Below are positions 14,240 through 36,273 of a stretch of 64,000 nt of DNA, piece after piece; positions within the stretch are counted from its first letter, which is position 1, and each line of letters starts with the position of its first letter. Location of the stretch: positions 384,001 to 448,000 of the forward strand of contig CP009479.1 of the NCBI GenBank assembly GCA_000965745.1, read 5' to 3'. The translations under genes were made by a program, and so were the position numbers. A model generated the notes under the pieces. The model was not told the DNA's origin. It saw only the letters and a program-made list of their open reading frames with translations, and did not search any database. Origin of the DNA: an uncultured archaeon. GTDB taxonomy: Archaea > Thermoplasmatota > Thermoplasmata > Thermoplasmatales > Thermoplasmataceae.

Positions 14240-14278
14240 AATGATTCGACTCGTTCGTTACTTTTAATAATCTTACCA

Positions 14279-15391: not shown

Positions 15392-15405
15392 TAACGTTCA
15401 ATAAC

Positions 15406-17499
15406 ATGGTGTTTTATATGGTTGATTCTTTGATGGAAAAAGGTGACCAAACTCAAAGAGGTGGCAATGGGCAAAGGAGATCATTAATCGAGGAGTTGCC
15501 AAGAATAGTCGACAGAGGAAAGAAGGAGGCACAGAAAATTCTTGATGGGCTTTCTAAGTCCCAGAGAGTAACTCTTCAGACAAACGAATTGGTGCTGCCT
15601 ACAAAGGCCATCGGAGGGCTGACCAAGTTTACGGGGCAGACTGTAAGGACGGAAGATAACAGTGAATTTCTTAATCGACTCATATACGGTGATAATCTGT
15701 TTGCCATGCAGGCACTTTTAGCAGGCGATCCTGAAACAGGACTTCCGTCAATGAGAGGCAGGATCGACCTGATTTATATTGATCCGCCCTTTGACAGCAA
15801 GGCGGATTATAGGACAAAAATACATCTTCCTTCCGTAGACATTGAGCAAAAACCATCGGTAATAGAACAATTCGCATACTCTGATACTTGGAAAGACGGG
15901 ACAAAGTCTTATCTGGAGATGATCGCCCCCAGATTGGTTCTAATGAAAGAACTACTGAGTGAAAAGGGTTCAATCTACGTGCATATAGATTGGCATGTTG
16001 GACATTATGTAAAAGTAATAATGGACGATATCTTCCAAAAGGAAAATTTCATAAATGAGGTTGTTTGGAAAAGAACAAGTGCTCATAGCGATTCTGGTAG
16101 ATATGGAATCAATAGTGACTACATATTATTCTATACAAAAACTTCTGAAAGGATCTGGAATCAGCAATACGAACCATATTCAGAAGAATACCTTGCGAGG
16201 TTCAGAAATGTTGACCCTGATGGGCGTAAATGGCAGGACGGACCGATAACGGCTAAAGGATTACAGGGAGGTGGTTATTCCTATGAATATAAAGGGGCCT
16301 ATGGCTACTGGAGGTGTCCTAAATCAACCATGGAAAGACTTGACAAGGAGAACCGGTTGTATTTCACCAAGAATGGTGGGATTAGGATAAAGAGGTATCT
16401 GGACGAAACTCCGGGAATACCTATGCAGACCATTTGGACGGACGTTTTTGCTGTCAATTCTCAAGCTCATGAAAGGGTAGATTATGTTACCCAAAAGCCG
16501 GAATCATTGCTGGACAGAATAGTAAAAACATCATCTGATGAGGGTTCTATTATCGCAGATTTCTTTGCAGGTTCTGGAACATTAGGAGCAGTGGCAGAGA
16601 AACTTCGAAGAAAATGGATTATGTGCGATTTAGGTAGACCTGCAAGTATGATCTCTCGAAAACGTCTTATCGACCAGGATTCCGGACCATTCCTCTACCA
16701 AACTATTGGAGACTACCAGAAAGAACAGTTTGAAAGATCGCAATTCAGACGTATAGGAGACCTTGCCCATGTTGTGATCAACCTATACGGTGCGCTTCCA
16801 TTTCCGATGCAAGAAGGTACCCCCACTAATCTTGGCTACATCAAACAGAGTAAGACTTTGGTGTTTGTTGACTCTCCCACAAAAATCACTGGTTATGCTA
16901 CTCTTAAAAGGGCCCAAGAGCTCAGAGCCTCCTTCATGGGAGGATGGAGCAGAATAGTTGTTCTGGGTTGGAACTTCGAAACGGATATTGGTAAAATCAT
17001 AGACGGCATAAACGATGATAAGCTCGAAGTACTGGTGATTCCCCCAGACTTGTTGGAGAAGTTAAAACACAAGGCTGACTACGAGAAACTCATAAAAGAA
17101 GGGAGCGTAAGATTCAGTTCTTTACAATACCTTGCTGTCAGACCAGTTATCAAAAAATTAGCAGATGACGACACGGAGGAGTTGACAATTGAACTTGAGA
17201 ATTATGTTCTTCTTTCCCCAGATGCATTACCACTTGACAAGGCAGACAAGGACAAACTCGAAAAGATCATAGAAGAGGATCCTTTGAGTCTCGTTGAATA
17301 CTGGAGCATTGACCCAGAATATGATGGAGAGATGTTCAGGAGCAAATGGCAGGATTACCGGGAAAACCATGAAGAGTCCGCTAAGGTGGACCGAAAGGTA
17401 AAACTCCTTGTCCCCAAGATTAATGGAAAAAGAAAGGTCTGCGTGAAAGCAGTTGATGTATTCGGATTCGAGAGCGTGACCGTTAAAGAGGTATTTTGA
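15406..17499 (+). CDS. mod: Type III R-M methyltransferase subunit (N6-adenine)
   Basis: LIYGDNL, IYIDPPF catalytic motif, TQKPESLL and DFFAGSGT SAM-binding motif. Confidence 0.9.
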   Translation: MVFYMVDSLMEKGDQTQRGGNGQRRSLIEELPRIVDRGKKEAQKILDGLSKSQRVTLQTNELVLPTKAIGGLTKFTGQTVRTEDNSEFLNRLIYGDNLFAMQALLAGDPETGLPSMRGRIDLIYIDPPFDSKADYRTKIHLPSVDIEQKPSVIEQFAYSDTWKDGTKSYLEMIAPRLVLMKELLSEKGSIYVHIDWHVGHYVKVIMDDIFQKENFINEVVWKRTSAHSDSGRYGINSDYILFYTKTSERIWNQQYEPYSEEYLARFRNVDPDGRKWQDGPITAKGLQGGGYSYEYKGAYGYWRCPKSTMERLDKENRLYFTKNGGIRIKRYLDETPGIPMQTIWTDVFAVNSQAHERVDYVTQKPESLLDRIVKTSSDEGSIIADFFAGSGTLGAVAEKLRRKWIMCDLGRPASMISRKRLIDQDSGPFLYQTIGDYQKEQFERSQFRRIGDLAHVVINLYGALPFPMQEGTPTNLGYIKQSKTLVFVDSPTKITGYATLKRAQELRASFMGGWSRIVVLGWNFETDIGKIIDGINDDKLEVLVIPPDLLEKLKHKADYEKLIKEGSVRFSSLQYLAVRPVIKKLADDDTEELTIELENYVLLSPDALPLDKADKDKLEKIIEEDPLSLVEYWSIDPEYDGEMFRSKWQDYRENHEESAKVDRKVKLLVPKINGKRKVCVKAVDVFGFESVTVKEVF

Positions 17500-20423
17500 T
17501 GGTAAATGTCAAGTCTCCCGGAACAAGAGATGTACCGCTAAAGCTTGCGAAGAGGATTACCGAACAAGCAAACGAGTTGTGGAAATCTGGAGAATTTCTT
17601 GAGAAAGTCGCGCCAATAACTCAGGAACTGCTTAAGTTCTGGGACCCTGATGGAATATTTGCTGATGAAAGAAGCATAAACTTTCATGATGGGCAGTGGC
17701 AATCGATACTGAATGTAATCTATGTGCACGAGGTCCTGAAACTATCCAGCGTTGGTGAGCTGTATGCTCAAATTTACTCAGAACTGCTGGCGCAAATGAA
17801 CATGGCAGATCTCAAACAGGATAAATACGAACATCCAAAATATTGTGTAAAGATGGCAACAGGAACCGGTAAGACTTGGGTTATGGATGCTTTACTCATA
17901 TGGCAATACCTTAACTCAAAATACGATGAAAATGGAAGTGAGAGGTTCTCAAAGAACTTCTTGTTAGTGGCTCCTGGTATCATAGTCTATGAAAGACTCC
18001 TGGACGCTTATCTGGGAAAGCGAAGAGAGGACGGTAATAGGGACTTTGATCAGTCCGATTTCTGGAGATTTCAGAAACTCTTCATTCCACCTGTCCACAA
18101 GGATGCAGTCTTTGGCTTTATCCAGAGTTGTGTTTCTCAAAAAGAGGAAATAGGACGAAAAGTCACCGGAGAAGGGCTAATAGGAATCACAAACTGGCAT
18201 CTTTTGGCAGAGGATGAGGAAGAAGATGAACTGGAGTCTGCACTAGATAGGCCAGATATAGCAGTAAATGAACTGCTCCCCATTACTCCTGGTACTTCCC
18301 AGGGCCATTCCTTGGAGGAACTTGACAATCAGTATATGAGAGGCCGGGAACTCGACTACTTATCAAGTCTTCAGGACCTTGTCGTATTCAATGACGAAGC
18401 TCACCATCTTGGCGAGATGAAGAGGGCGGATCAGGTTGTGGAGAAGAAATGGCAGGAAGCACTGGACAAAATTGCAGAGATCAAGAAGGATCGTTTCATG
18501 CAAGTGGATTTTTCAGCAACACCGTACATTGTCACTGGTAGTGGACAAAGCAGAGTCCAGAATCATTTCCCACACATAGTGTCCAACTTCGAACTCGTGG
18601 ATGCAATAAAAGAAGGACTGGTCAAAACTGTCGCTATTGACAAGAGGAAGGAGTTCGGTTCAATTCCTCTTGAGGACCTTGAGTACAAAGCAGAGCGAGA
18701 GGGCAAACAGGTTGCGAGTCTCTCCGATGGGCAAAAACTCATGCTAAGAGCAGGTATGCAGAAATTGAACATACTTGAGGAAGAATTTACAAAACTGGAC
18801 TCGACAAAGTATCCTAAAATGCTAGTCGTCTGTGAAGATACCAAAGTGGGCCCTCTGGTTATCACATTCCTTCTGCAGGAAGGCTACTCAGAGGACGATG
18901 TAATGGAAATCCACTCCACAAGGAAAGGCGATGTGAGCGAGGCAGAGTGGAAAGTGATTGAACAAAGACTCTTCGACATAGACCGTCATAAGAAGCCAAA
19001 GGTGATTGTTTCCGTTCTAATGCTCAGGGAAGGATTTGATGTTAACAATATATGTGTTATAGTGCCACTTAGGTCCGCCTCTTCTTACGTTCTATTGGAG
19101 CAGTTAATAGGGAGAGGTCTCAGATTAATGTGGCGTGGACCAGACTACGATGATATAAGAGCAGAAAATCGTGAGAAACTTCTAGTAAAGAAGGAAGAGC
19201 CAGATAGCTATATTGACATTCTAAGTGTAGTAGAGCACCCTAACTTCATCGAATATTATGAAAGAGTCCTTGCCGGAATGGTGGGCAAGGTCAGTGAAGA
19301 ACCAACAAAGAATAGAGTCGTTGGCGACCTTATCAAGGTAGGTCTCAAACCTAACTACAGAGACTATGACTTGTTCTGGATCATCATATTGCAGGACAAA
19401 GAGGAAGAACTCGCGGTGCCTGACCTATCCATAAATAAACTTGAGCCATTCCAGATGAGACTTGAGGATTTGCGTTCACTGGTCGGGCGAAAAGGTGATA
19501 CGTTTTACAGCGAGGAATTGACAGTAAAGACAACTTTTGGCGAATATACTGTTACAGCAGACATTTTCACTGCAAAAAGCTACAATTCATTTATCCAGAA
19601 AGTGGTGAACGCAGTGTCAGTTATCCATGTCAATGCAAGAGGCAGGAAATCAAGGGATTTTCCAGTCATGCAGGTTAATTCTGCCCTTATTGCAAAGCTC
19701 ACGGATGAATACATCAGACACAAACTATTCGGGCAGGAGTTTGATCCATTAGTGGATAATAACTGGCGCGTACTTCTTGTGGCACAGCAGAACTTGATCA
19801 AGCACATTGTAAGTAACATTGCACAGGCTGTTTATGATTCCATGAAGAATCTCAAAGTAAACGAGGCCAAGATCGTGAAAAAGTACTTCTCCGAGGTGCC
19901 TGAAATTCGAATAAGGGAAACATATGCCTTGAGAGCTGCAAAGAACATTTACGAGAAGATAGCCTATCCTTCACATGCTGGTGGGTTTGAAAAGGACTTT
20001 ATCGAATTCATAGATTCTGATTCCAAAGTCAAGGCATTTGTGAAGATAAACGAATACTACAACGACTTTGCAAATATCATTTATGTCAGGGACGACGGTC
20101 TTCTTGCTCACTACTACCCGGACTTCATGATAAGGGCTTGTGATCACATCTATCTTGTAGAAACCAAATCTGAAAGAGACATGAGCAACCAGAATGTCAA
20201 AAACAAGAGGATCGCAGCCATTGACTGGGTGGATAAAATAAATGAGCTCCCTCCAGAGGAAAGAATGAATTGTGATTGGAGCTACGTGCTCCTTAGCCAG
20301 AACACTTTCGAAATGATGAAAAAGCAGGGCGCGAATACCTGTGAGATACTGGAATACACCAAACTCACCAAGGCAAAGGTGAGAGGTACACTAGGAGACT
20401 ACATGGGATTCAAGGACTATTGA
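17496..20423 (+). CDS. res: Type III R-M restriction helicase-endonuclease subunit
   Basis: MATGTGKT, NDEAHH, FSATP, LREGFDV, EQLIGRGLR, and the C-terminal YYPDF...VETK nuclease motif. It overlaps the mod stop. Confidence 0.88.
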   Translation: MMVNVKSPGTRDVPLKLAKRITEQANELWKSGEFLEKVAPITQELLKFWDPDGIFADERSINFHDGQWQSILNVIYVHEVLKLSSVGELYAQIYSELLAQMNMADLKQDKYEHPKYCVKMATGTGKTWVMDALLIWQYLNSKYDENGSERFSKNFLLVAPGIIVYERLLDAYLGKRREDGNRDFDQSDFWRFQKLFIPPVHKDAVFGFIQSCVSQKEEIGRKVTGEGLIGITNWHLLAEDEEEDELESALDRPDIAVNELLPITPGTSQGHSLEELDNQYMRGRELDYLSSLQDLVVFNDEAHHLGEMKRADQVVEKKWQEALDKIAEIKKDRFMQVDFSATPYIVTGSGQSRVQNHFPHIVSNFELVDAIKEGLVKTVAIDKRKEFGSIPLEDLEYKAEREGKQVASLSDGQKLMLRAGMQKLNILEEEFTKLDSTKYPKMLVVCEDTKVGPLVITFLLQEGYSEDDVMEIHSTRKGDVSEAEWKVIEQRLFDIDRHKKPKVIVSVLMLREGFDVNNICVIVPLRSASSYVLLEQLIGRGLRLMWRGPDYDDIRAENREKLLVKKEEPDSYIDILSVVEHPNFIEYYERVLAGMVGKVSEEPTKNRVVGDLIKVGLKPNYRDYDLFWIIILQDKEEELAVPDLSINKLEPFQMRLEDLRSLVGRKGDTFYSEELTVKTTFGEYTVTADIFTAKSYNSFIQKVVNAVSVIHVNARGRKSRDFPVMQVNSALIAKLTDEYIRHKLFGQEFDPLVDNNWRVLLVAQQNLIKHIVSNIAQAVYDSMKNLKVNEAKIVKKYFSEVPEIRIRETYALRAAKNIYEKIAYPSHAGGFEKDFIEFIDSDSKVKAFVKINEYYNDFANIIYVRDDGLLAHYYPDFMIRACDHIYLVETKSERDMSNQNVKNKRIAAIDWVDKINELPPEERMNCDWSYVLLSQNTFEMMKKQGANTCEILEYTKLTKAKVRGTLGDYMGFKDY

Positions 20424-20448
20424 CTCTTCTTACACTGACAACTTGTAC

Positions 20449-20613
20449 CTAAGCAGTACTCTTTGGAATGGTGTAGGAATTCTTCTCACCCACATAGGTA
20501 TTGAAATTATTACCACACTCTGAGCATTTGTATCTTGAAACCTCATATACATTAAACGCCCATTGTTTGAGAGGAGGATTCTTATTTTCCATGTTACAGA
20601 CAGGGCACTTCAT
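20449..20613 (-). CDS. 54-aa Zn-ribbon protein with Cren7-like pattern (not in ORF track)
   Basis: MKCPVCNMENKNPPLKQWAFNVYEVSRYKCSECGNNFNTYVGEKNSYTIPKSTA*, containing two CxxC motifs. Confidence 0.7.
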   Translation of the reverse strand: MKCPVCNMENKNPPLKQWAFNVYEVSRYKCSECGNNFNTYVGEKNSYTIPKSTA

Positions 20614-20639
20614 AACGAAATAGTAGAACTAACGCCGAC

Positions 20640-20813
20640 TTAAATTTGTTCCTGTAAAAACTCCCTTGCACTTCTGACCCCTTTCTTTATATCATCTTCA
20701 CTTTTTCTTAATTGCTCCATCACACAATGGCTTTGAAGAGTTTCAATGGTAGCAAGAAGGCTATCCAGGTAGGATTTTGGTATGCTTATCAACCTGTCGT
20801 TGTGTTTTGCCAT
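20640..20813 (-). CDS. Orphan antitoxin-like small protein (Phd/YefM C-terminal-like)
   Basis: ISIPKSYLDSLLATIETLQ...MEQLRKSEDDIKKG pattern. No adjacent toxin gene was seen. Confidence 0.5.
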   Translation of the reverse strand: MAKHNDRLISIPKSYLDSLLATIETLQSHCVMEQLRKSEDDIKKGVRSAREFLQEQI

Positions 20814-20856
20814 CAAGAACAATAATACATATTCAGCTTTTAGTATCTATTGGTAA

Positions 20857-21270
20857 GACTCCGGCTCAAATTCACCCCTAACCCCTCTTTGAGCCTCCGC
20901 CGATTACTATGTGCCCTTCGCTCGCCTGCACGCCGAGCACAGGACCCCATGCTTCGACTCCAATCAAAATTCACCCCTAGCCCCTCTTTTGATTTACGTC
21001 TCGCACTCTTCTTCGAAGAGCCCCTCATTCGCCTTGCTCATTCAGGGTGGTGTCCTGTGCTCGCCGCTCGTGGTGTATGTGTGGTGTTAAACACCTTCGC
21101 TTCGCTTGGTGTTCCACACCACCCACCGCTAACGCTTACACCACTCGGTCTTGCTACGCAAGACTTCCGGCTCGCTTCGGGCACATTATTCTCTCCTGCG
21201 GAGTGCAATTTTAGGGGAACAGGGGGAGGGGAATTTTTGACCGCACAATCTCGCTGCGCTCGGTGCGGGA
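20857..21270 (-). other. Highly structured non-coding region (candidate single-strand origin / ssDNA signal, or ncRNA)
   Basis: At least 9 nested perfect stems, two repeated hairpins with compensatory stems, and C-GNA-G triloops on the minus strand. Confidence 0.75.
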
Positions 21271-21406
21271 TAATATTAGGGGTTCTCGGTCCGTGCTCAC
21301 TTCAACGATTCACAGATGGATAATACAAAGCACTGCGACCAACCCTTTTGGGAAAAGGTAGACGAAAACAAAAATTATTAGAAAATAATGTAATAACCAC
21401 GTGACG

Positions 21407-21443
21407 AGGTTTGTATAACAAACCTGACAAACAGGTTTTATAC
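21407..21443. promoter_or_regulatory. Palindromic operator and TATA-like box upstream of the DGQHR gene
   Basis: AGGTTTGT-ATA-ACAAACCT (21407-21425), an overlapping AAACCTG-N5-CAGGTTT, and TTTTATAC at ~21436. Confidence 0.55.
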
Positions 21444-21472
21444 AAGAAACCAATTAAGAGGTAGGTGAAACA

Positions 21473-22585
21473 ATGAGACTTAGAGCACTTGAAATTAGTC
21501 AGAAGGATACCCAGTTCTACCTCTGCTCATTTAGAGCAAAAGATATCGTTGGTATCTATAAGGTAGATACATGGAGAACGGATAACAGGAATGGCTACCA
21601 GAGAGATGTTGTAATCAGTAGGGCAAGAGGGTTTGGAAGATTCATAAGAGATGGCGGTGTCTCGCCTTCTTCCATACTGCTAAATGTGAGAGAAAGTGGA
21701 GTTATATCTTACAAAGATGGTTATTTACAGATCCCAGACGAGACTCCATTATGGATCGTAGATGGTCAGCACCGTGTCAAAGGGCTCAAAGAAATGATTG
21801 AAAATGATGGTCACATTGACATGGGAGAATTTGAATTCCCCGCAGTAATAATGAATTACCAGAATCCTTATGAGGAGGCTAAGCAATTCGTCATCATTAA
21901 CAGAACCGCAAAGGGTGTACGGTCTGATTTAGGTGAAAGATTCCTTCAAAGGGCTATTGAAGAACAAGGTAAAATGAGTGTCATGGCCAGACAAGGGCTC
22001 CCTTCATCGATTCTTACCGGAGTAGAATGGAAAACAAGGGCTGTCAATATAACCGACAGGATTAGCACCCTGGATACTTCTATATGGAAAGACCTGATTA
22101 TATTTCCGAACGAGCCTAAAGGCGATAAACTGGTCAGTCAAAAAGCATTTTCAGACTCACTGAGGCCAATTCTTAATGACCGACTATTTGAGAGACGTAC
22201 AGACGATGAAATAACCCAGATTCTCATAAACTACTGGAATGCAGTCAAGGAAATTTGGCCCAGATGCTTCAGCGATCCAAGCTCTTACGTTCTTCAGAAG
22301 TACGCAGGGGTTTTTGCCGTTCACAAGTTGCTTCCAAAGGCAGCTCAGTTCTGCCCTACTAAAGGCGATAAAATTGTTCTTACTAAAGATTCTTTCCTGG
22401 TAATTTTTGAAAGACTTTCTCAGAAGGACTTGGGGGACGGCAAGAAGTTTGACGAGGAAATTTGGGCAAACAGAGGCAGATATGGAATGCTTGGTACAAC
22501 AATGAAGTCCGTTTCCCTAATTACAGACGACCTGTCAGATGCGCTTGACAATTCTTTAGGATCGGGACAGGATATAGAACTGTAA
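21473..22585 (+). CDS. DGQHR-domain (DndB-like) protein
   Basis: GYQR, SILLN, WIVDGQHR and QFVIINRTAKGV motifs; AGGTGA SD. Confidence 0.88.
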   Translation: MRLRALEISQKDTQFYLCSFRAKDIVGIYKVDTWRTDNRNGYQRDVVISRARGFGRFIRDGGVSPSSILLNVRESGVISYKDGYLQIPDETPLWIVDGQHRVKGLKEMIENDGHIDMGEFEFPAVIMNYQNPYEEAKQFVIINRTAKGVRSDLGERFLQRAIEEQGKMSVMARQGLPSSILTGVEWKTRAVNITDRISTLDTSIWKDLIIFPNEPKGDKLVSQKAFSDSLRPILNDRLFERRTDDEITQILINYWNAVKEIWPRCFSDPSSYVLQKYAGVFAVHKLLPKAAQFCPTKGDKIVLTKDSFLVIFERLSQKDLGDGKKFDEEIWANRGRYGMLGTTMKSVSLITDDLSDALDNSLGSGQDIEL

Positions 22586-22602
22586 TTACCCCCTATTTCT
22601 AT

Positions 22603-23832
22603 TTGGAGGAATGTATGTCTTGTGATTTTATTTCTGAATTTCAAGTAACTGGCGACAAAGTAGTAAATCCAAGAGAAGGAATAACTTATGAATTCAAGGA
22701 GAATTTTAACTGGGGAGGCAAAGAGAAATATGCCAAGATCATGGCTTCTTTTGCTAATTCCACAGGTGGTTACCTCCTATTTGGCGTAAAAGATGACGGG
22801 CATATCGAGGGTCTCTCTAACAACAACTTTGAAGACCGCGACCCGGCAAATATCAGTTCATTCTTGAATTCCTTGTTCACTCCTGCAATACGGTGGGGCA
22901 AGTTCGTATGTGAACTTGGAGGATACAAGATCGGAGTCATCAAAGTCGAAGAGGCAATAGAAAAACCAATTATATCATATAGGAACGGCCAAGAGGTGAA
23001 GGAAGGAGACATTTTCTTTAGGTATGCAGCTCAAAGTGAAAGAATTAAGTTTTCTGAACTGAAGTCGATCATTGAAATTGGAAGAAGGGTGTACGGAGAG
23101 AAGCTCCTCAAGAGTCTAAGAATGATTGTCGAGAAAGGTCCTGAATCTGTAAAACTGCTTGACCTGAACGAGTTGAAAGATGCAAAGAAAGATGAGATTT
23201 ACTTCCTAGATGATAACTTTCCCGATTCGGAAGTAAGGGTACACAGAGCCTCAGAAAGCGAACAAACAAAGGGAGTTGGCATAAAAATAGTCAATGTTGA
23301 AGGTAAGGCGATGCCAATTACAATTAGGGAATTTGCAAACATAAGTTCAGAACTTATTGTGCACGCCTTTCTTGATCAAGAGCTCCCTGCAAAATTTGAT
23401 CCAATGGGCTTTGTGGAACGTCTCGCTTTCGAAACTAGCGGTTTGGTGCCTATGTATTTTTATATAAAAGAGGCCAACTTAACAAGAGATGAGGCAGTTG
23501 AGCTTATTAAAAAAACAAAGTCTACCACTAGAGGAAGAACTACTATCCTAAAACGATTGAGTGGTAAGGAATACGACTTCAGATCTTCAACATACAGCAA
23601 CACACTTGATGACTTAATTAATGGTTCCTTGAGCATAAGTGATCTGCAAACCTCAAATGTCAGGACCGTCTTGCAATCTATACGGTCTTGTTCAAAAGGC
23701 TTCTTGGTGCAGAACTGGAATAGGCTGAAGGACATAATGCAATACCTATATGATGAGTATTATATGAACCCGAAATTCAGGTCTGAGGTTAGATGGGCAA
23801 TGTGTTTCATAGACTTGACCTTATTTTCATAG
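22603..23832 (+). CDS. AlbA_2/Schlafen-like domain protein with unassigned C-terminal region
   Basis: REGITYEFKE, MASFANSTGGYLLFGVKDDG and IFFRY are typical AlbA_2 motifs. Likely start is ATG 22615 after GGAGG. Confidence 0.85.
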   Translation: MEECMSCDFISEFQVTGDKVVNPREGITYEFKENFNWGGKEKYAKIMASFANSTGGYLLFGVKDDGHIEGLSNNNFEDRDPANISSFLNSLFTPAIRWGKFVCELGGYKIGVIKVEEAIEKPIISYRNGQEVKEGDIFFRYAAQSERIKFSELKSIIEIGRRVYGEKLLKSLRMIVEKGPESVKLLDLNELKDAKKDEIYFLDDNFPDSEVRVHRASESEQTKGVGIKIVNVEGKAMPITIREFANISSELIVHAFLDQELPAKFDPMGFVERLAFETSGLVPMYFYIKEANLTRDEAVELIKKTKSTTRGRTTILKRLSGKEYDFRSSTYSNTLDDLINGSLSISDLQTSNVRTVLQSIRSCSKGFLVQNWNRLKDIMQYLYDEYYMNPKFRSEVRWAMCFIDLTLFS

Positions 23833-23839
23833 TCCGCGT

Positions 23840-23882
23840 AAGTATTCGCTTAATATTTTAATCAAATCCCGACCGGTCCATT
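23840..23882 (+). repeat. attR1 (arm plus tRNA-Ala 3' core)
   Basis: AAGTATTCGCTTAATATTTTAA followed by TCAAATCCCGACCGGTCCATT. Confidence 0.92.
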
Positions 23883-23888
23883 CGAACC

Positions 23889-24281
23889 CTACCTGAACAG
23901 CTTGAGACCCTTGTCAGTAAAAACTTCAAAGTGATTATATAAGGTATAGAGTGAGCATCCGTTATTAATTGCTATTGACGCAACAATAGCGTCCATTCTT
24001 GGAACTGCCCCTCCTTTTCTTTCCGCGTCTAATTCTAAAACGGCAGATAGTTCACTGTCATTTTTACTGTATTCCAGAGTTGGAATCTGCAGGACTAGAC
24101 GAGAATCTCTGGAGTATTTCTCTATACCGTACAGCACCTCATGCATGTTCACTGAACTTGTGCAGTATTCTTCCCCGCTTTCGATGATTTTAAGCATGAG
24201 TTCCTGGCCTTTGTATGAGTCCTTATCCAGCACTTCGATGATGATATCCGTGTCCAGAAGAATCAATTTCTTTTCTCCCAT
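23889..24281 (-). CDS. vapC: VapC PIN-domain toxin
   Basis: ILLDTDIIIE, HEVLYG and MDAIVASIA motifs. It overlaps the antitoxin gene. Confidence 0.88.
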   Translation of the reverse strand: MGEKKLILLDTDIIIEVLDKDSYKGQELMLKIIESGEEYCTSSVNMHEVLYGIEKYSRDSRLVLQIPTLEYSKNDSELSAVLELDAERKGGAVPRMDAIVASIAINNGCSLYTLYNHFEVFTDKGLKLFR

Positions 24282-24475
24282 CGTTTCTTTTCTATATCCA
24301 TGAGGAGCTCCTTCTTATTTTCAAATTCCACGCTTCCCCGTAGAGACAAAAGTAGATCCTTCTTGCTCTGTGATTTAATAAGCCTGTCCAGAAGTTCACT
24401 GAAACTTTCATTCTCCTTCTTGAATCCCATCAGTTCATCATATACAGATTTCTTAATGGTGATAGTTTTAGGCAT
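24263..24475 (-). CDS. vapB: VapB antitoxin (archaeal DUF217-like)
   Basis: KTITIKKSVYDELMGFKKENESFSELLDRLI pattern, directly upstream of the PIN toxin. Confidence 0.88.
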   Translation of the reverse strand: MPKTITIKKSVYDELMGFKKENESFSELLDRLIKSQSKKDLLLSLRGSVEFENKKELLMDIEKKRWEKRN

Positions 24476-24550
24476 AACATATGTTTATGTTTAACACTAT
24501 TTATACCTTCATACATCTACCAGTAAAGGCGCTGGAACGTGTCTTCTATA

Positions 24551-24591
24551 AAGTATTCGCTTAATATTTTAATCAAATCCCGACCAGTCCA
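24551..24591 (+). repeat. attR2, a 40/41 copy of attR1
   Basis: AAGTATTCGCTTAATATTTTAATCAAATCCCGACCAGTCCA versus 23840-23880: a single G>A difference. Confidence 0.92.
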
Positions 24592-24696
24592 CTTCAAGTT
24601 TACCGGGATATGCGAACAACTTTCAAGATTTACCCCCACCCTTGATTGTCTGCAGAAGCTCCATGCGGGATCACTTCAGCACCGGATCCAGTTCAA

Positions 24697-26151
24697 TCAA
24701 TTTTCTGGTTTCTTCAATTTCTTGAAAAGCTCATGTTCTATATCCGAAAGATTCATGAAGATTACATTTCCAGCCAGCCCATGCATGGCTCCCTTGAATC
24801 CACTTTTTGAAAATACAGCATATGTATAATTTTTCCCGGGGTATTGCTTTCTCAGTGATTCTGATTTTGTCTTTAAAGCTTCAACCACATTTATCGGTAC
24901 GGGACTGTTTGTCCACTTGCATTCTGCGAAAAACAATTCTCCACGTTTTTCGGAGTGTGCGACGATATCGATCTCCTCCACACCCCTGCCCTTTTTTCCG
25001 GACCCGTTTCTGCCCCACCACCTGGAAACAGTGTCAAACGATCTGCCTAATATCCCTTCCAATATTAGTTCCTTCATGAGGTTCTCAAACTGCTCACCCG
25101 CAAATGTGGGAAAATCTGTCTTTATGCTCTCAAGTACGCCTCCGTTGCGGGAACTCTCGATTTCACTCTTATGCGGCAATACATACCTGAACCAGAACTT
25201 CAGGTACTGGTCGGATATCCAGTACAATTTTCTCTTGAATTTCTCATGAGCCCCGAATGGCTTTTCAGGTATTACAAGGCCAAGTGACATGAGGACATCG
25301 AGATACTTGGATACCATACTCTTGTCCAGCCCGGAATAGTAACATATCTCTCCCAATGTATGATTTCCGTAAGAAATAGATCTGAGAATCAGCATGTAGT
25401 TCCTCGGTTCCCTGAATTCAGTTCTAAGGAGAAATTCTGCCTCCTCATAGAGTGCAGAACCTTTTGAAAGCAGGTTCTTTGACACATTTCCCCAAAATCC
25501 AACAGAAGGATCAAGTTTCAGAAGATATTCTGGTATGCCGCCAAATACAAAGTATGTATTGCATAAATCTTCAAATCCATAATCCACAAATTCAGCCAAA
25601 TATCTGAACTTCAAAGGTTTCAGCTGCAGTTGGCCGGTTCTTCTGCCGTAAAGAGGACTTCTACAGGAAAGTACTTCATTTTCCATTATGCTGATTGATG
25701 AGCCTGAAAGAATCAACATTACATTCATCTGCCTCAGAATCGTGTCGTATATTTTTTGAAACACCGATGAGATTGCCCTGTTAGCCTCTATTAGATATGG
25801 AAATTCATCAATGGCAATTATGACCTTTGATTTGCTTGCTTTCGCACGAAATGAGCTACTTGAAGCCAGAACAGAGAAAAGAGAGTGCCAATCATCAAAA
25901 CTTGCCTTGATAATACTGTCATCTTCCAGAAACCTTGATACACTCGCCTTGAAGTTGTTTATGTTTTCTTTGTCTCCTTCTGCTGTTGCAAGAAAATAGA
26001 CTCCCCTGTTGCCAATGAACCTACTGATTAATTCAGTCTTTCCAACCCTTCTTCTCCCATAAAGGATGAACAGCGAAGCTTCCTTGGATGAGTAAGCATT
26101 CTCAAGGATTTCTAGTTCCTCAACTCTGTTGACAAACTTTTGTTGATACAT
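24697..26151 (-). CDS. Archaeal ATPase (AAA + wHTH + DUF234/PD-(D/E)XK domain)
   Basis: FVNRVEEL, YGRRRVGKT, IDEFPYL, GGIPEYL, DQYLKFWFRY and RWW...EIDIV...FAECKW. Confidence 0.9.
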   Translation of the reverse strand: MYQQKFVNRVEELEILENAYSSKEASLFILYGRRRVGKTELISRFIGNRGVYFLATAEGDKENINNFKASVSRFLEDDSIIKASFDDWHSLFSVLASSSSFRAKASKSKVIIAIDEFPYLIEANRAISSVFQKIYDTILRQMNVMLILSGSSISIMENEVLSCRSPLYGRRTGQLQLKPLKFRYLAEFVDYGFEDLCNTYFVFGGIPEYLLKLDPSVGFWGNVSKNLLSKGSALYEEAEFLLRTEFREPRNYMLILRSISYGNHTLGEICYYSGLDKSMVSKYLDVLMSLGLVIPEKPFGAHEKFKRKLYWISDQYLKFWFRYVLPHKSEIESSRNGGVLESIKTDFPTFAGEQFENLMKELILEGILGRSFDTVSRWWGRNGSGKKGRGVEEIDIVAHSEKRGELFFAECKWTNSPVPINVVEALKTKSESLRKQYPGKNYTYAVFSKSGFKGAMHGLAGNVIFMNLSDIEHELFKKLKKPEN

Positions 26152-26263
26152 AAGTATTATACTTTATTCACAACAAGTACATTAACCTGTCCGGACTAAA
26201 CGTATTAAACTGAATAACCTTGGAGTCTTCCTTTAAAACAATAATAATTTATCAGGATGCCGT

Positions 26264-26506
26264 TCATTCAAGCTCGAGTCTTCTCTTCAGCTCTTCGAGT
26301 GAGATAAGTCTACCCTCCACTACATCCAAGGAACTCTCGAGGAAAGATGCTTTGAATTCATCAGTGTATCTACCTTCATCGTCACCCTCAGGGATCAGAC
26401 TCAATAATGCCCTTATCAATTTGTCATAAGAAATGCCACCGGCTTTCTTTAGTGCTTCCAATCTCAATTTAGTGGATTCTTTTACGTGGATTGTGGAATT
26501 ATTCAT
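26264..26506 (-). CDS. Orphan RHH antitoxin-like protein
   Basis: STIHVKESTKLRLEALK...SYDKLIRALL and a C-terminal GRLISLEELKRRL typical of archaeal RelB-type antitoxins. No toxin gene follows. Confidence 0.65.
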   Translation of the reverse strand: MNNSTIHVKESTKLRLEALKKAGGISYDKLIRALLSLIPEGDDEGRYTDEFKASFLESSLDVVEGRLISLEELKRRLELE

Positions 26507-26594
26507 TCTTTCCTATGATTAAGGAGAGCAACAATTTAAATGGTATCTTCAAGCGGAATGGGCGACGCGAGCATGAACTCATTTGTTAATTCCG

Positions 26595-26631
26595 GTATTC
26601 ACTAAAAACACTAATCGAATCCCGGCCGGTC
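26595..26631 (+). repeat. attR3, degenerate
   Basis: GTATTC-N12-AATCGAATCCCGGCCGGTC has the same arm-to-core spacing as attR1/2, and its core is 15/17 identical. Confidence 0.75.
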
Positions 26632-26871
26632 AATGATATCTCACGGTCATAATTTTCAACAGAAAACCTCCAATCAATAGATTTCAACTTCTGTCCATCG
26701 CCCATAAACCCTTGATAGAAACAAACTGGAAAAGAGTGCCAATGAAATGGTCAATTCCTAATTCTGCCCTCCAGTTGTTTAATTCAGCTTATGGTTTATC
26801 TCAAGTCCGTGGTGTAGCAGCCTCTAGATATGCGAATATGAACAAAGTTATTGGTATAACAATATGGATGC

Positions 26872-29800: not shown

Positions 29801-30231
29801 CGATGCCAGTAAGCTGGGGCGCCTGGAACCCTGACTACCCCTTCCCCACAGACTATCTGCTGCCAATGGCAATGCCAATAAACGGATCCTTCTACATGGG
29901 AGCTGCAGATTACACGCCATACAATGTGGAAAACACCAGTCACAATGCCTACAACCTGTCTGAAGCAAGCTTCATGAACCAGGAAATCAGTGCATTGAAC
30001 AATGCGACAAGCAATGTGACAAATCAGACACTTTCGGAGTACTGGTTCCATGTTACGAACGGAATGGTCGTAAACAGCACAAATGAGGTATACGCCGGAC
30101 AGACACACAGATACCTAACCATCAGCGCAGGCATAAACGGAAACGACATTACAGCGTACCAGCAGAACGTGATGTTCGGAGGCAAAGGCATATTGCTCTA
30201 CAACCTTATCGGGTACAACACAACAGCGTGA
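26872..30231 (+). CDS. Large ABC-type peptide-binding protein (family 5) with N-terminal TM anchor, PKD-like domain and S/T/N-rich insert
   Basis: TM segment WIAVVIALLAIIGVLGG, PKD motif VYFGDG...HRYTNPGEY, TLDPATAY, KFANGNPVTAWDIMYSLTR, NVRKAFAYAF and WNPDYPFP. Likely start is MSDSG at 26905. Confidence 0.88.
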   Translation: MLSNLNSRVNNMSDSGDNKKTTGDPQIGSIRANTKTSTKWIAVVIALLAIIGVLGGVLATHYSAAQTAGGINAILSSKIGAIDQNGTYTTSITASSTFKNMTVYFGDGSSQLLNYNGNNTVKISHRYTNPGEYYIFADINYGSTSSYYIEPVKVTPQYPNTKYAYRSMSVDPLSSSPQLVNNLSNIFSPGSHMTLNFVPPVGGGSDQIVQQTLSMSNGTGMVSSQNIPYFYNLNNKEYEIPVQTEAYGGLQSGLYVLEINTTTAPVNFTQMITAKVSSTSIMNFTANQQYISASATSLVHNLSALQFDRTNITYSANTTVNYTNPAALFLWDSANITLNNGSVTYGTKTVTSGTFKVNASTELSLSRQTNVTFNNMASAELNDTSTVSVFTGAASGITTDNATQIKFLANAHNVSVTSTLTGASTVPLNNGEYNRSATVTTSYFIDFPVVGQVQQQTGASTSFTNAEPNLPGGYTTLDPATAYYQADTEILSSVLMTLVTYNGSSTSNFEPLVAKQLPSFKNGEINSNYTNKTVTTPWGSKYQYNVTPGENYTFVVNQKIKFANGNPVTAWDIMYSLTRTLLFAGGSPGTSGWILGQYILPGHYFKTNTFYNITTNMTVDNNTNSITFHFQQPMNPSFAFQIFSSVGTWIEDSGWYIKHGAGITWSKQGFQDYKKYGDLSNYNSYVQNHVMPDGPYRVSYIVPGTQVTLAANPDFVSPGPWYPAAKINTVNILYPHTNQQAYLLLKSGQAQNAFLPTTYWNQTRALANSGTISVYGFPTLSINFYNFNLKINATILHSLDQSSNVPSYFFVNPNVRKAFAYAFNYSLYFGRQVGNEVYNTTFFSPYVGMLPSGMLYNQTAQGLADAGSGVVNANGHEPFQLQQARKYLNYFFNGTTSSSNHDTAGTMNVKFQGGKVLYNGNPLVIPIIVPANDPTSTAAVTTWGADLKQILPGASFPIVPLPLTQLFGAYSVQGQNPMPVSWGAWNPDYPFPTDYLLPMAMPINGSFYMGAADYTPYNVENTSHNAYNLSEASFMNQEISALNNATSNVTNQTLSEYWFHVTNGMVVNSTNEVYAGQTHRYLTISAGINGNDITAYQQNVMFGGKGILLYNLIGYNTTA

Positions 30232-30279
30232 GCTTCGGTTCACGCCGAATAATTTTTTATTCTTTTTCTCTTTATTTTG
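30226..30279 (+). terminator. Hairpin with C(UUCG)G loop followed by T tracts
   Basis: GCGTGAGC-TTCG-GTTCACGC at 30226-30245, followed by T-rich sequence after the SBP stop. Confidence 0.6.
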
Positions 30280-30363
30280 ACTGGAAGAACATTGTTATAC
30301 TACTGCAGGAGATCAGGCATTGAGGTTTGTTCAGGGCTTGCCGTTGAAAGTGATGCGTGAGGT

Positions 30364-30810
30364 GTGGAAATAAACATGACAGTAACCGTGCGTTCAGAAG
30401 TGAGAATATGGCCAAATGCCAGCAAGATAGACGACTGCACCCAGAATTACCTTACCATTCCAAAGAAGCTTATATCTGACACATACAACCCTGGTCCGGG
30501 TTCAATAGTAACAGGGAAGATAGTAGCCGTTTCAATAGAAACAGATGAAGACATAGTTGGTGGCGGCGAATTCTCAAGTGTTATAAGGGATATCCCGGCC
30601 AGTACGAGGATAGTACTCGGGCAGGGCGACTATGATTACCTTTTTATATTCACAAAGGACTGGAAAAAGATTTCCAAAAAATTCACTGTTCCAGGGAGAA
30701 AATTCCTGACCTACTCCATTGACTCGATCCAGAACGGAAGGAAAAAAGAGAGGATCTACCACGGAAATACGGTATACTGGGAAGAGAAGGACGGTACAAC
30801 CCTGGAATGA
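30364..30810 (+). CDS. Hypothetical protein, possibly AbrB-like swapped-hairpin fold
   Basis: YLTIPKKL...PGSIVTGKI pattern; GAGGTG SD. Confidence 0.55.
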   Translation: MEINMTVTVRSEVRIWPNASKIDDCTQNYLTIPKKLISDTYNPGPGSIVTGKIVAVSIETDEDIVGGGEFSSVIRDIPASTRIVLGQGDYDYLFIFTKDWKKISKKFTVPGRKFLTYSIDSIQNGRKKERIYHGNTVYWEEKDGTTLE

Positions 30811-30917
30811 GAAGGCAGGTTCAATGATGACTGATCGTGCGATACGAATAAATCTGACCAACATATATTACATCCGGACGTGGATATTTGCCGGACGGAT
30901 ATGACAGGAGCAACAGG

Positions 30918-32024
30918 ATGGAGAAAGTGAAGTATTACCTTGCCCTCGCAATAGAGAACAGAAACAAAGGAAGAATGAATGAGGCTGAAAGGAACTACAT
31001 AGACGCCGCACTTTCACTTCTTTCCCATGCAAAGTCTGATGACACACCATCCAGGGCTAAGGACATACGAAGAGCAATAGATGTCCTTGACAACTTCCTC
31101 AACGTGTTCCACCCATCAGACACAGGCTCCGGAGATGATTATGCAAATGAAGGGTGGAAAATTCTCAACGAAGTCGGAATAAGCGCCTCCAGGCTCGAAA
31201 AAACATCGCTTGAGGACGTGGCTGGCCTCAGTACTGTCAAGGAGGAAATCATGAGGAGGCTCATTTACCCTATCAAATATCGTGACCTGTCAAAAAAATA
31301 TGGAGTCAGGCCATCCGGCGGGGTACTGCTCTACGGGCCGCCGGGAACCGGGAAGACTTTCCTGGCCAGGGCGATTGCCAACGAGGCCGGGGCAGCTTTC
31401 ATCAATGTAAACCCCTCAAGCCTTTATAACCAATGGTTCGGGCAATTCGAGAAGAACATAACCAGGGTGTTTGAGGCAGCAAGGCTCCTGTCCCCCTCAG
31501 TGATTTTCTTTGACGAGATCGAGACTATCGCCTCAAGGAGAGGTGGGTACGAGCAGGACGCGGCCTCAAGGAGAGGGGTCTCACAGCTTCTTATAGAGAT
31601 GGAGGGTGTAGAAAAGACGAGGGATGAGGAGATATTTGTACTGGCTGCAACCAACAGGCCTTGGGACCTTGATGAAGCCATTCTGAGGCCTGGCAGGTTC
31701 GACATACGGGTTTACACACCCCTCCCTGATGCCAGTGCCAGAAAGAAGATGTTCGAAAACAATCTCAGGAACATTGCATTCTCTGATGGGGTCGACTTTG
31801 ATGATCTTGCCTCAAAGACAGAAGGTTACAGCGGGGCTGATATTTCATACATATGCAGGAGGACAGTTATTGGCGCCTTTGCAAGAAGTGTTGAAGCCGG
31901 CAGAGAGATAAGGCTTGCTGGAAAGGACATGGAACAGACTATTGCAGAGGTGAAGCCCTCTGTTTCAGGAAAAACTGTAAGCCTTTATGAAAAGTTCTCC
32001 GGAACTTCAGGCATGTCAGCCTGA
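30918..32024 (+). CDS. Single-AAA ATPase with N-terminal MIT-like helical bundle (Vps4/CdvC-like)
   Basis: GPPGTGKT, FFDEIE, pore loop QWFG, ATNRPWDLD. The N-terminal KYYLALAIENRNKGRMNEAERNYIDAALSLL is MIT-like. Start taken at ATG 30918 after AGGAG. Confidence 0.75.
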   Translation: MEKVKYYLALAIENRNKGRMNEAERNYIDAALSLLSHAKSDDTPSRAKDIRRAIDVLDNFLNVFHPSDTGSGDDYANEGWKILNEVGISASRLEKTSLEDVAGLSTVKEEIMRRLIYPIKYRDLSKKYGVRPSGGVLLYGPPGTGKTFLARAIANEAGAAFINVNPSSLYNQWFGQFEKNITRVFEAARLLSPSVIFFDEIETIASRRGGYEQDAASRRGVSQLLIEMEGVEKTRDEEIFVLAATNRPWDLDEAILRPGRFDIRVYTPLPDASARKKMFENNLRNIAFSDGVDFDDLASKTEGYSGADISYICRRTVIGAFARSVEAGREIRLAGKDMEQTIAEVKPSVSGKTVSLYEKFSGTSGMSA

Positions 32025-32083
32025 GGCTAGGCTCAACAACAAAGATTTTAATTACGAATATCTTGTTATGCATAGGGAAGAGC

Positions 32084-32401
32084 ATGACGATTGAAGACTT
32101 TCTTATGCCGGGTGAGGAGATTAAATATCATGGAGGCTCCAGCCTCATTTATGGTGGCAAGCCGTATGAACTGATAATAACAGACAGGAGACTCCTGCTT
32201 TACGGCAGGCGCGGGATGCTTTTCAAGAAGGATGATATTGTAAGCCAGAAGGTGGAGGAGGTTCAGAATATAAAGTACTCCGAGAACGGCATAATCAGAA
32301 AAGAGGGAGTTCTTCAGATTGACGCAAAAACGAGGTTCTCGCTTATAGGCCATCCAAGCCAGGTGAAGGCCATATATCAGCAGATCCTCCAGTTCTTCTG
32401 A
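32084..32401 (+). CDS. Stand-alone prokaryotic PH-domain protein
   Basis: LMPGEEI...LIITDRRLLLY...GMLF...IKY...G.LQI with a C-terminal helix, matching the bacterial PH pattern. Confidence 0.75.
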   Translation: MTIEDFLMPGEEIKYHGGSSLIYGGKPYELIITDRRLLLYGRRGMLFKKDDIVSQKVEEVQNIKYSENGIIRKEGVLQIDAKTRFSLIGHPSQVKAIYQQILQFF

Positions 32402-32407
32402 TCAGAA

Positions 32408-32917
32408 ATGGCGCTGAGAGATACCTACAGGAACATGGTAGTGGAGAAAGTCCAGAAAAGGGCCGGATTTTCCCTTGACCAGGGAGGTGTACCTGCAAGG
32501 CAGTGGAAGAGAATATCTGAGCTTTCAGAGATTCTTCATGAAGCGGTTGTCCTGGAGCAGATGATCAGGGTTGAGGAAAAAAGAAGCAGATCTGTCTCGT
32601 CCAGAATATCCTCAAGAATAAGGCCCGCCAAAGCAGAGGAGCTGAAGCAATCGCTTTCTTCACTTGAAAAGGTTAAAAGCGGGATATGGAACAAGTGCGA
32701 TTCCATTGCATATGATATCGTCCGTGAGAAGGAGATGTCGGGGGCCGATTCAGTCCACGCGGTCCCCCCGGATTCCGCTGGAATCATGAGATGCCGTGCC
32801 TGCGGCGGAGGTGTCTCAATACTTGCTTATGACAATTATAAATGTACGAAATGTGGTCTCGGTTACTCAGCCAGGGACTACCTGGAAATTCTGATAAAAG
32901 ATGTGGAAGGAATATAA
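32408..32917 (+). CDS. Helical/coiled-coil protein with C-terminal Zn ribbon
   Basis: CRACGG...YKCTKCG motifs; starts 6 bp after the PH gene stop. Confidence 0.7.
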   Translation: MALRDTYRNMVVEKVQKRAGFSLDQGGVPARQWKRISELSEILHEAVVLEQMIRVEEKRSRSVSSRISSRIRPAKAEELKQSLSSLEKVKSGIWNKCDSIAYDIVREKEMSGADSVHAVPPDSAGIMRCRACGGGVSILAYDNYKCTKCGLGYSARDYLEILIKDVEGI

Positions 32918-32961
32918 GAATGAGGTCCGCTGTACGGATGCTGGAAAGCGGTAGTCGTATG

Positions 32962-33612
32962 CTACTCCTTTTCTGATTCTTTGTTCTGCCCCAGCTTCTT
33001 GATCAGTTCATCCACCGATTCTTCATCGCCGTTCACTGTGGACGGTGCCTTTTGAGCATTTTCCTGTGAAGGAGCTGAAGAGGCTGAAACGCTAATCTTA
33101 TTCCTGATGCCGCTCAGTATGTCTTCCACCTTTTCAGGGTTCTTCTGCCCAATCTGGTCCACAGAGGAGGTTATCTGGTCAAGCTGGGAGTTCAGCCTTT
33201 CCTGTATCTGGTCTGATGACATCATTATGTTTTCTATGTTTGTGTTGATCTGTGTAAGCTGCTTGTCTGAGAGCTGACTCTTAATAAGGTCCTGAGAGCC
33301 TTCCTTTAATGAGGCCCATATGTCCTTGGTAGTTTTGGCGAATTGCAGGTTCAGGTCTATGTTGTCTAGAAATAATTTATAATCCTTAAGTCCCCTTATT
33401 GCGCTGTTAAGCATCACTATGTTAGACGCAAAAATACGTGCCTTCTGATCGTTTTCATCTTCAAGGGCCATTTTTATGTCGTCCACGTTTCTTTCCCGGT
33501 TCCTTTCATAACTTCTTATTGCCCTTTCTATTTCACTCTTCCAGCGATTCAGCTTTGATCTTCTTTCCATGATCTTTTCGTTTTCAGTTTTACCAAACTT
33601 AAAAGGCGACAT
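32962..33612 (-). CDS. ESCRT-III/Snf7 (CdvB)-like protein
   Basis: Basic N-terminal helical hairpin with IKMALEDENDQKARIFASNIV (Vps24/Vps2/CdvB-type turn), acidic C-terminal half, flexible linker and terminal helix VDELIKKL. Confidence 0.75.
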   Translation of the reverse strand: MSPFKFGKTENEKIMERRSKLNRWKSEIERAIRSYERNRERNVDDIKMALEDENDQKARIFASNIVMLNSAIRGLKDYKLFLDNIDLNLQFAKTTKDIWASLKEGSQDLIKSQLSDKQLTQINTNIENIMMSSDQIQERLNSQLDQITSSVDQIGQKNPEKVEDILSGIRNKISVSASSAPSQENAQKAPSTVNGDEESVDELIKKLGQNKESEKE

Positions 33613-33776
33613 TGTCAATCTACGTAGAATAACTAAGGGAATCAGATTATTAAGATTTTCCTCATTATCTCGCTATTTCGCCCTCCGATGGTTCATGCGG
33701 GGACTCAATGAATTCTGCTGAAATACTCCCTCGCAGGGAGTTTTTATTTAATTGTATGTTCATATACAAATAACTG

Positions 33777-34999: not shown

Positions 35000-35261
35000 A
35001 CCTGATCTCTACGTTGTTGCGAGGATAATCAAGGCTCTGATAGATGACGGTCCCATGAAAAAGACAAGGCTCTCCACCTACGCTGAGCTTTCCTATGACA
35101 AGTTCATATCATACATGGAGTGGATGGTGAATAGAGGATTTCTGAAGGAAAGTGACGGGGAGGTGTCTGTTCTTGAAGAAGGAGTGGAGACCTACAACAG
35201 ACTTGTGGAATGGATATTGAAGTATGTGGGAAAGCTTAAGTTCAGCAGAAGAAGGTTCTAG
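34971..35261 (+). CDS. Winged-helix transcriptional regulator (probable non-canonical start upstream of ATG 35055)
   Basis: The frame is open from 34962 and reads NFKPDLYVVARIIKALIDDGPMKKTRLSTYAELSYDKFISYMEWMVNRGFL, a wHTH pattern. Confidence 0.7.
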   Translation: MSNSRDQNFKPDLYVVARIIKALIDDGPMKKTRLSTYAELSYDKFISYMEWMVNRGFLKESDGEVSVLEEGVETYNRLVEWILKYVGKLKFSRRRF

Positions 35262-36216: not shown

Positions 36217-36273
36217 AGCCTTATTATCATGGAATGCTGAAAAAGCCTAAATCCAACATTCTGTTTTTATCGT

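Follow-up and report, generated by a model that had tools for sequence, protein, structure and literature searches.

A tRNA-Ala-anchored accretion array of toxin-antitoxin and defence cassettes beside an integrative plasmid of Thermoplasmataceae

The stretch analysed here (the window, 64,000 nt; positions 384,001 to 448,000 of contig CP009479.1, from an uncultured archaeon of the Thermoplasmataceae) contains a tRNA-Ala(CGC) gene, an integrative plasmid-like element inserted at the 3′ end of that gene and, downstream of the element, further copies of its right attachment (att) site with small genes between them. The locus raises the question of what these repeated sites are, and how the genes between them came to be stacked there. 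An earlier note on this DNA had proposed a tRNA-anchored, integron-like accretion array, and had regarded relics of earlier insertions as the simpler explanation. We observed that the array consists of stacked micro-cassettes lacking an integrase (0.4-3 kb, mostly toxin-antitoxin (TA) pairs and single defence genes), each ending in one half of the plasmid's att site, and that these cassettes are discrete modules, common to and reshuffled among genera. Sequence comparisons further indicate that a family of Orc1/Cdc6 plasmids of the Thermoplasmatales integrates, via its own tyrosine recombinase, at the 3′ end of tRNA-Ala(CGC) or tRNA-Ala(TGC). These structural claims are firm, and they support an accretion array anchored at the tRNA and tied to an integrase-bearing element. 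As for how the cassettes are mobilised, we infer, with somewhat more confidence than doubt, that the plasmid moves them in cis.

The tRNA gene and the att sites of the window are as follows.

6292-6363, plus strand: tRNA-Ala(CGC), the only tRNA gene of the window, intact (ARAGORN); the core shared by every att site (attB/attL core) is its 3′-terminal 19 nt (6345-6363)
6365-6386, plus strand: P′ arm of attL, the 22-nt arm inverted, 19/22 match (fuzzy arm search, both strands)
23840-23882, plus strand: attR1, P arm and exact core, right end of the element; 64.8 bits
24551-24593, plus strand: attR2, same arm as attR1, core with 1 mismatch (G>A); 58.3 bits
26223-26266, plus strand: attR2b, a decayed fourth site, arm recognisable, core broken by indels; 21.8 bits for the arm only
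26593-26635, plus strand: attR3, degenerate arm, core with 3 mismatches, outermost site, next to the chromosomal flank; 46.1 bits

At the 3′ end of tRNA-Ala(CGC), positions 6345-6365 read TCAAATCCCGACCGGTCCA(TT), which is the core. It recurs as an exact 21-nt repeat at 23862-23882; the copy at 24573-24593 has 1-2 mismatches and the one at 26615-26635 has 3-4. Directly before it stands a 22-nt arm that does not belong to the tRNA, AAGTATTCGCTTAATATTTTAA, identical at 23840 and 24551 and found as a degenerate copy at 26593. The sites are spaced 711 bp (attR1 to attR2) and 2042 bp (attR2 to attR3) apart. The listed scores come from a position matrix made from 78 sites of related genomes, for which the genome-wide 99.999th percentile is -9.6 bits; by this matrix, the whole 2.23-Mb genome holds six strong arm-plus-core sites. 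The three sites that the earlier note had placed at 23840, 24551 and about 26595 are thereby confirmed, as is the near-identity of the first two, arm included. Over 81 sites the consensus reads AGTATTCcCTTAAAACwTTAA, then TCAAATCCCGACCGGTCCA, then TT, with conservation of 82% in the arm and 91% in the core against 41-47% in the flanks.

The unit between attR2 and attR3, described earlier as about 2.04 kb with an ATPase gene and an orphan antitoxin, has the expected spacing and genes, but it is not a single unit. The arm of attR2b scores far above the 3.8 bits of the window's 99.99th percentile, and in an alignment it coincides with the att site at the end of the ATPase cassette of G019 (G-numbers label genomes of the comparison given below). 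We conclude that the unit is two cassettes, one of about 1.67 kb with the ATPase gene and one of about 0.37 kb with a ribbon-helix-helix (RHH) gene. The array thus runs attR1, vapBC (711 bp), attR2, ATPase, attR2b, RHH, attR3. In the congeneric G002, an att site stands before the same flanking gene as attR3 does.

The inverted arm is found beside attL and also after tRNA-Ala(TGC), at genome position 602466. From its place beside attL, the attP of the plasmid is arm-core-inverted arm (P-core-P′), and each downstream site is the P-arm half of it. As the earlier note had it, no P′ arm follows the internal cores (at least 8/20 mismatches, in the window and in the arrays of relatives). The same was true of further arrays (at least 9/21 mismatches), except at junctions in G041, G070 and G073.

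Chance repeats, a CRISPR-like or tandem-repeat origin and folded sites of the attC type were all rejected; single-stranded DNA of attR1 and attR2 gave no attC-like fold on either strand (-2.0 to -4.6 kcal/mol, z +0.78 to -1.31 versus shuffles). We also observed that the attR1 and attR2 arms (23840-23861 and 24551-24572, 22/22 identical) share a private variant, GCTTAATATTTTAA, seen in 0/76 other sites, which could reflect gene conversion or a common element lineage. A contig of the public run X8 covers attR2 with at most 2 differences in 800 nt.

The cassettes and their genes are the following.

23883-24550, minus strand: cassette 1, 711 bp with its site, vapC and vapB
23889-24281, minus strand: vapC (PIN), PF01850, E 8.6e-8
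24263-24475, minus strand: vapB, PF02697, E 4.3e-14
24594-26222, minus strand: cassette 2a, ATPase gene at 24697-26151
26264-26592, minus strand: cassette 2b, RHH gene at 26264-26506

The PIN and VapB domains bear out the earlier assignment of the 711-bp unit to vapBC. As vapB lies upstream of vapC and overlaps it by 19 nt, the pair has the predicted layout of a type II VapBC toxin-antitoxin. Cassette 2a encodes a 484-aa protein with ATPase_2, winged helix-turn-helix (wHTH) and DUF234 parts (Pfam), which matches the PADLOC candidate PDC-S27 (E 4.9e-53). The product of cassette 2b is an 80-aa RHH (CopG/DUF7557-like) protein with weak Pfam matches and no partner toxin. All four genes are on the minus strand, as had been noted before, and none of the three cassettes, each bounded by arm-plus-core sites, carries recombination or transfer genes.

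To place the array in its family, we used a comparison set of 103 Thermoplasmataceae genomes from 20 genera. The arm-plus-core pattern was present in 65/103 genomes and 17/20 genera, while a reversed control gave 0 matches, and the largest arrays had 8-10 sites. An all-against-all comparison of the units between sites yielded 12 cassette families, whose alignments span from one core to the next. Fourteen pairs of families co-occurred in at least two arrays, and seven of these pairs stood in conflicting order, which is not explicable by loss from one ancestral order.

The vapBC cassette was seen in 41/103 genomes and 15 genera, at 65-89% identity (72-89% for full-length copies). For 29 copies in other genomes, an att site was found at the projected upstream boundary in 16/29 and at the downstream boundary in 10/29. 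The upstream neighbours fell into 14 unrelated groups among 16 copies (the window copy counted), and the downstream neighbours into 10 groups among 11 copies. Cassette 2a was found in 25/103 genomes, often without the RHH part, and the RHH-plus-arm part stood alone in G004, G086, G089 and G094. Within the same genus, tRNA-Ala(TGC) is directly joined to vapBC in G003 and to a 1965-bp cassette in G002, and the same cassette comes first after tRNA-Ala(CGC) in G003 and after tRNA-Ala(TGC) in G001; the congeners G001 and G002 have neither cassette of this window. Far from being invariant, cassette number and order vary strongly among relatives, and the proposal of the earlier note thus withstands the refuting condition it had named for itself. 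Across genera, the cassettes are 72-95% identical, versus 66-71% or no similarity detectable by blastn for the chromosomal flanks, in line with horizontal spread of the cassettes.

The 79 open reading frames (ORFs) of the cassettes include 12 PIN, 7 VapB, 6 RHH/DUF7557, 4 ParE, 2 Fic and 2 PDC-S27-type ATPase genes, and among the remainder are metal-transport, methylase and Schlafen-helicase genes. Their orientation is mixed: 49 ORFs lie in the direction of the tRNA and 37 opposite to it, and of 33 cassettes 11 are plus, 13 minus and 9 mixed. In G013, at least eight cassettes stand at tRNA-Ala(TGC); that locus lacks an integrase, and one that is 92% identical is encoded at the other tRNA-Ala gene, which suggests that the element arrives and leaves independently of the array. 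An array of G013 (C1 905000-924999; oriented array positions 29954-37668) holds an 802-bp cassette twice, the copies being 99.4% identical. One of them is preceded by a tRNA-Ala-like fragment reaching back to the anticodon region, with no arm, and has the same core variant as the other copy.

The element that precedes the array and its recombinase have the following positions.

6364-23882, plus strand: integrative plasmid-like element, 17.5 kb, bounded by attL and attR1
6413-7702, plus strand: integrase, a divergent tyrosine recombinase of 429 aa

The element lies between direct repeats identical to the 3′ end of the tRNA, and tRNA-Ala(CGC) is left intact. By Pfam and NCBIfam, its genes comprise the integrase, a VirB4/HerA-like ATPase, ParA, a resolvase and Orc1/Cdc6, together with a type III restriction-modification system and a DndB-like plus Schlafen/AlbA_2 pair. 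The integrase had no Pfam match; in NCBIfam it matched XerA_Arch (E 2e-10; 40.7 bits, cut-off 220) and XerC (E 1.7e-5), both below the cut-off, and a PDB sequence search gave chance-level matches only. Residues R152, K196, Y270, R273, H300 and Y308 are invariant among 12 homologues of 41-90% identity, and from their motifs we read them as the putative catalytic R-K-(H/Y)xxR-(H/W)-Y set of tyrosine recombinases. Thermoplasmatales genomes and metagenome bins have homologues with 65-95% identity, among them those of E-plasma, I-plasma, Acidiplasma, Cuniculiplasmataceae and Thermogymnomonas; the integrase of the cultured relative Acidiplasma aeolicum is 90% identical. The right-end cargo of intact elements is of the same defence type as the content of the cassettes.

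Some further observations concern the element itself. Its 624-aa VirB4/HerA-like ATPase gene contains a perfect 99-nt tandem duplication (33 codons; 10419-10616). Contigs of runs X1, X2 and X5 join its non-coding backbone module (20648-21290, ending at about 21273-21288) directly to a P arm, the joints running from 21024, 21273 or 21288 to 23842 or 24551. Their source is related elements with other cargo, and they imply that such elements, with other or no cargo in that slot, occur in the same samples. The DndB-Schlafen pair was rejected as a cassette, as in the one other case (G004) it is again internal cargo without a left att site.

The same genome carries a second element at tRNA-Ala(TGC), whose tRNA shares the core. 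It is 21.3 kb long, with a backbone 81-89% identical to that of the window element, and at this locus (genome 602393-632332) three strong sites delimit two cassettes, one of 1965 bp and one of 1018 bp that encodes RHH and ParE. After the latter come a TPR plus Fic unit (SoFic/PDC-S04-like) and a weak, decayed distal site (17.4 bits, genome 632290). The two genes of the 1965-bp cassette (genome 623806-625770) code for proteins of 343 aa (wHTH) and 248 aa, and neither Pfam nor PADLOC gave a match. This cassette is kept end to end in at least six genomes of different genera, always flanked by att sites, and is a candidate for an undescribed toxin-antitoxin or defence pair. The two tRNA-Ala genes with this core are the only places in the genome where we saw multi-site arrays. 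Separately, copies of the 3′ end lie 2.4-13 kb downstream of five other tRNA genes (Thr-CGT, Met, Ala-GGC, Leu-CAG and Val-TAC, at genome positions 1091350, 1307298, 1511165, 2068864 and 2149057; Thr-CGT has two, 51 nt apart), which points to more small tRNA-anchored islets in the genome.

How do the cassettes travel? In the reading that we favour, incoming DNA would enter at the tRNA, so that older units are pushed outward and their sites decay. For pick-up, attL would recombine with a distal arm-plus-core site instead of attR1, giving an enlarged circle of the element plus cassettes whose attP contains the arm of the cassette. For drop-off in the next host, attL would recombine with the proximal site and excise the element alone, leaving the cassettes joined to the tRNA without a P′ arm. 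Pick-up and drop-off together would explain the tRNA-cassette junctions, the arrays without an integrase, the exchange between both tRNA-Ala genes and the shuffled orders. Units with a P′ arm would excise alone and vanish, and one-armed units would accumulate, with TA genes penalising their loss. The cassettes themselves probably arose as right-end cargo of such plasmids.

The evidence on decay fits this origin. Mismatch load grows with the rank of the site from the tRNA (Spearman 0.47 over 68 sites of related arrays, which are not independent); the earlier claim of decay with distance holds for related arrays and only broadly inside this window. Tandem whole elements, recognised by P-core-P′ junctions followed by integrase fragments, were seen in 3/103 genomes (G041, G070 and G073), whereas about 80 internal sites lack a P′ arm; in G041 and G070 the tandem elements contain degraded integrase genes. 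In G010, a mini-element with both arms joins a PIN cassette to a 37-nt remnant of the left end of the element, in which the P′ arm is included. These decay intermediates (G041, G070 and G010) make it plausible that cassettes start as right-end cargo of decayed elements.

We also looked for recombination junctions in assembled Logan contigs of public runs. These contigs break inside the 41-nt repeat, and the stretch compared excludes attL. A 386-nt contig of X8, which comes from a different study, runs from GAGGTCTCGGGT (12 nt of the tRNA T-arm) through the core into the vapBC cassette and differs at 2 of 374 nt, and further X8 contigs over the cassettes and the flank have about 99% identity. 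This hints at a near-identical strain with the array directly at a tRNA-Ala gene and without the element. The joint is only a hint, as its tRNA side is 12 letters (<31). For G003, the assembled contig establishes such an arrangement firmly. That X8 contigs do not cover the element was not counted as evidence. Cross-mapping of other att sites accounts for most of the loose contig ends (23840, 23882 and 24550). One contig of X5 (depth 6) has a joint from 24593 back 753 nt to 23841, which would put two arm-plus-core sites nearly back to back; it may come from another organism. The episomal attP pattern had 0 matches in viral contigs and one in a 2-kb metagenome contig, where P-core-P′ stands before an integrase gene and fits an episome or a tandem alike. 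A circular-looking contig was rejected as a circle, being tRNA-element-element in tandem.

Several observations weigh against movement by the plasmid in cis. The contigs showed neither an enlarged circle (attR2 or attR3 arm with the P′ arm) nor a circle or deletion scar of a cassette, over the stretch without attL. We found no clear joint movement of an element with its adjacent cassette, OWN2 and G047a sharing the backbone only. The arms have no cassette-specific signature, with identities within cassette families of 0.74 for downstream and 0.76 for upstream arms versus 0.77 for random pairs. In G050 and G010, which have arrays, the integrase genes are all either distant or broken. Cassettes could also be reshuffled with no integrase at all, through homologous recombination at the conserved 41-nt sites. 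Finally, every cassette family begins within a few nt of the core; random deletion of the P′ arm does not predict such starts, and a site-specific step is therefore indicated. Recombination of attL with a distal attR remains the most economical way to move the cassettes.

The starts at the core are also what one would expect of a functional analogue of the integron, in which single cassettes excise as circles between successive sites and the plasmid integrase re-inserts them in trans, at the tRNA core or at a further arm-plus-core site, P arm plus core being sufficient. Such a system would account for the absence of a P′ arm between the tRNA and its first cassette in several genomes, for the poorly conserved adjacency of vapBC and for the nearly identical duplicate in G013, and it agrees with arms and cores being far better conserved than their flanks. 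The decay of sites with distance from the tRNA shows instead that they are not maintained by selection, and the complete attP is two-armed, suggesting that both arms are used. No circle junction was seen in the assembled contigs, some genomes with arrays have no integrase gene that is both intact and close, and there is neither an attC-like fold, nor a common orientation, nor a resident integrase beside the array. We consider this alternative unlikely. The related proposal of an independently evolved integron analogue in Thermoplasmatales, with a family-wide TA and defence pool tagged by 41-nt half-att sites and moved at tRNA-Ala between genera by the plasmid recombinase, a single arm being sufficient, is speculative and in our view rather doubtful.

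A second alternative is that the units are right-end leftovers of tandem plasmids, in which TA genes survive through the penalty on their loss, the sites are no longer used, and diversity comes from loss, recombination between 41-nt repeats and gene flow. The decay intermediates fit this well, as do the drop in site quality with distance, the defence-type right-end cargo of intact elements and the private arm variant of attR1 and attR2, which would be expected if cassette 1 came from the same element lineage. To this extent the relics of the earlier note have a basis. Relics left in situ nevertheless fail to explain why the same cassette, with the same boundaries, lies between unrelated DNA on both sides in many genera, why family pairs conflict in order, and why congeners have the same first cassette at different tRNA-Ala genes. 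The rarity of P-core-P′ junctions and a cross-genus identity far above the chromosomal background also argue against it, and we give this alternative little credence.

If the cassettes are moved by the plasmid, as we favour, the array is a sequence-defined route by which acidophilic archaea could pool and reshuffle TA and anti-virus genes across genera, needing nothing more exotic than a tRNA-type attachment site. Its parts are defined (a 429-aa recombinase, a 19-21-nt core, two 20-22-nt arms and natural one-armed sites), so that the use of half an attP by a tyrosine integrase can be tested, as can the origin of integron-like cassette systems from ordinary integrative plasmids. Recurrent cassettes of unassigned role are candidates for defence or addiction modules; the two-gene unit of 1965 bp is one of them.

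Integrons have an IntI integrase, an attI site and cassettes with attC sites that fold as single-strand hairpins, and large chromosomal integrons are rich in TA genes. Archaeal integrons have been reported from metagenomes. The term integron-like, as used in the earlier note, is apt for the architecture: ordered, discrete, TA-rich cassettes, each with a recombination site at its end, that are shuffled behind one primary site. It does not extend to the machinery. The recombinase is not of the IntI type and is not fixed beside the array, riding instead on a mobile 17.5-kb element; each site is half an attP of the double-strand type, comes from a tRNA end and has no attC hairpin, and the distal copies decay; and the cassettes have no common orientation or Pc logic.

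The tycheposon islands of Prochlorococcus are anchored at tRNA genes, where serial integration pushes older elements outward and partial tRNA copies separate the units; they carry defence cargo, and excision and tandem junctions were seen in cultures (bioRxiv 10.1101/2020.12.28.424599). Comparing island architecture alone, the tRNA anchoring, outward growth, tRNA-copy separators and defence cargo are alike. Tycheposons, in contrast, carry an integrase, and their integrase-less remnants are degraded leftovers (bioRxiv 10.1101/2020.12.28.424599), whereas here discrete micro-cassettes with a conserved arm-plus-core site recur and the archaeal recombinase is of an unrelated family.

Among archaeal elements, PMC6972569 describes the pT26-2 family of Methanococcales, tRNA-targeting plasmids with non-partitioning (type II) integrases, and PMC6563490 describes arrays of integrated elements and tandem re-use of one site. 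As in the former plasmids, the recombinase gene here lies beside attP, the identity segment is the 3′ part of the tRNA with the T-arm, and the tRNA is restored; the plasmid backbone is different, and the recombinase has no Pfam match. A term search of the two papers found no mention of conserved 20-22-nt inverted arms or micro-cassette arrays, and our literature search found no description of such arrays in Thermoplasmatales.

The nearest known logic is the tandem accretion of cis-mobilisable elements (CIMEs) with ICESt1 and ICESt3 of Streptococcus thermophilus (PMC5704250, which summarises Pavlovic 2004 and Bellanger 2011). There, as here, att-bounded units without an integrase stand in tandem with an autonomous element encoding the cognate tyrosine recombinase. 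CIMEs can be moved by composite excision and derive from decayed elements, and both would hold for the cassettes as well. CIMEs keep both attL and attR, as chimeric two-armed junctions, whereas nearly all units here have the P-arm side only. The units here are also much smaller, with one or two genes in 0.4-3 kb, stand up to 8-10 to an array and draw on a family-wide cassette pool, in an archaeal host, with an Orc1/Cdc6 plasmid as the vehicle and a tRNA gene as the target. Together, these comparisons have led us to conclude that the new aspect is the one-armed micro-cassette, drawn from a family-wide pool and served by an archaeal integrative plasmid.

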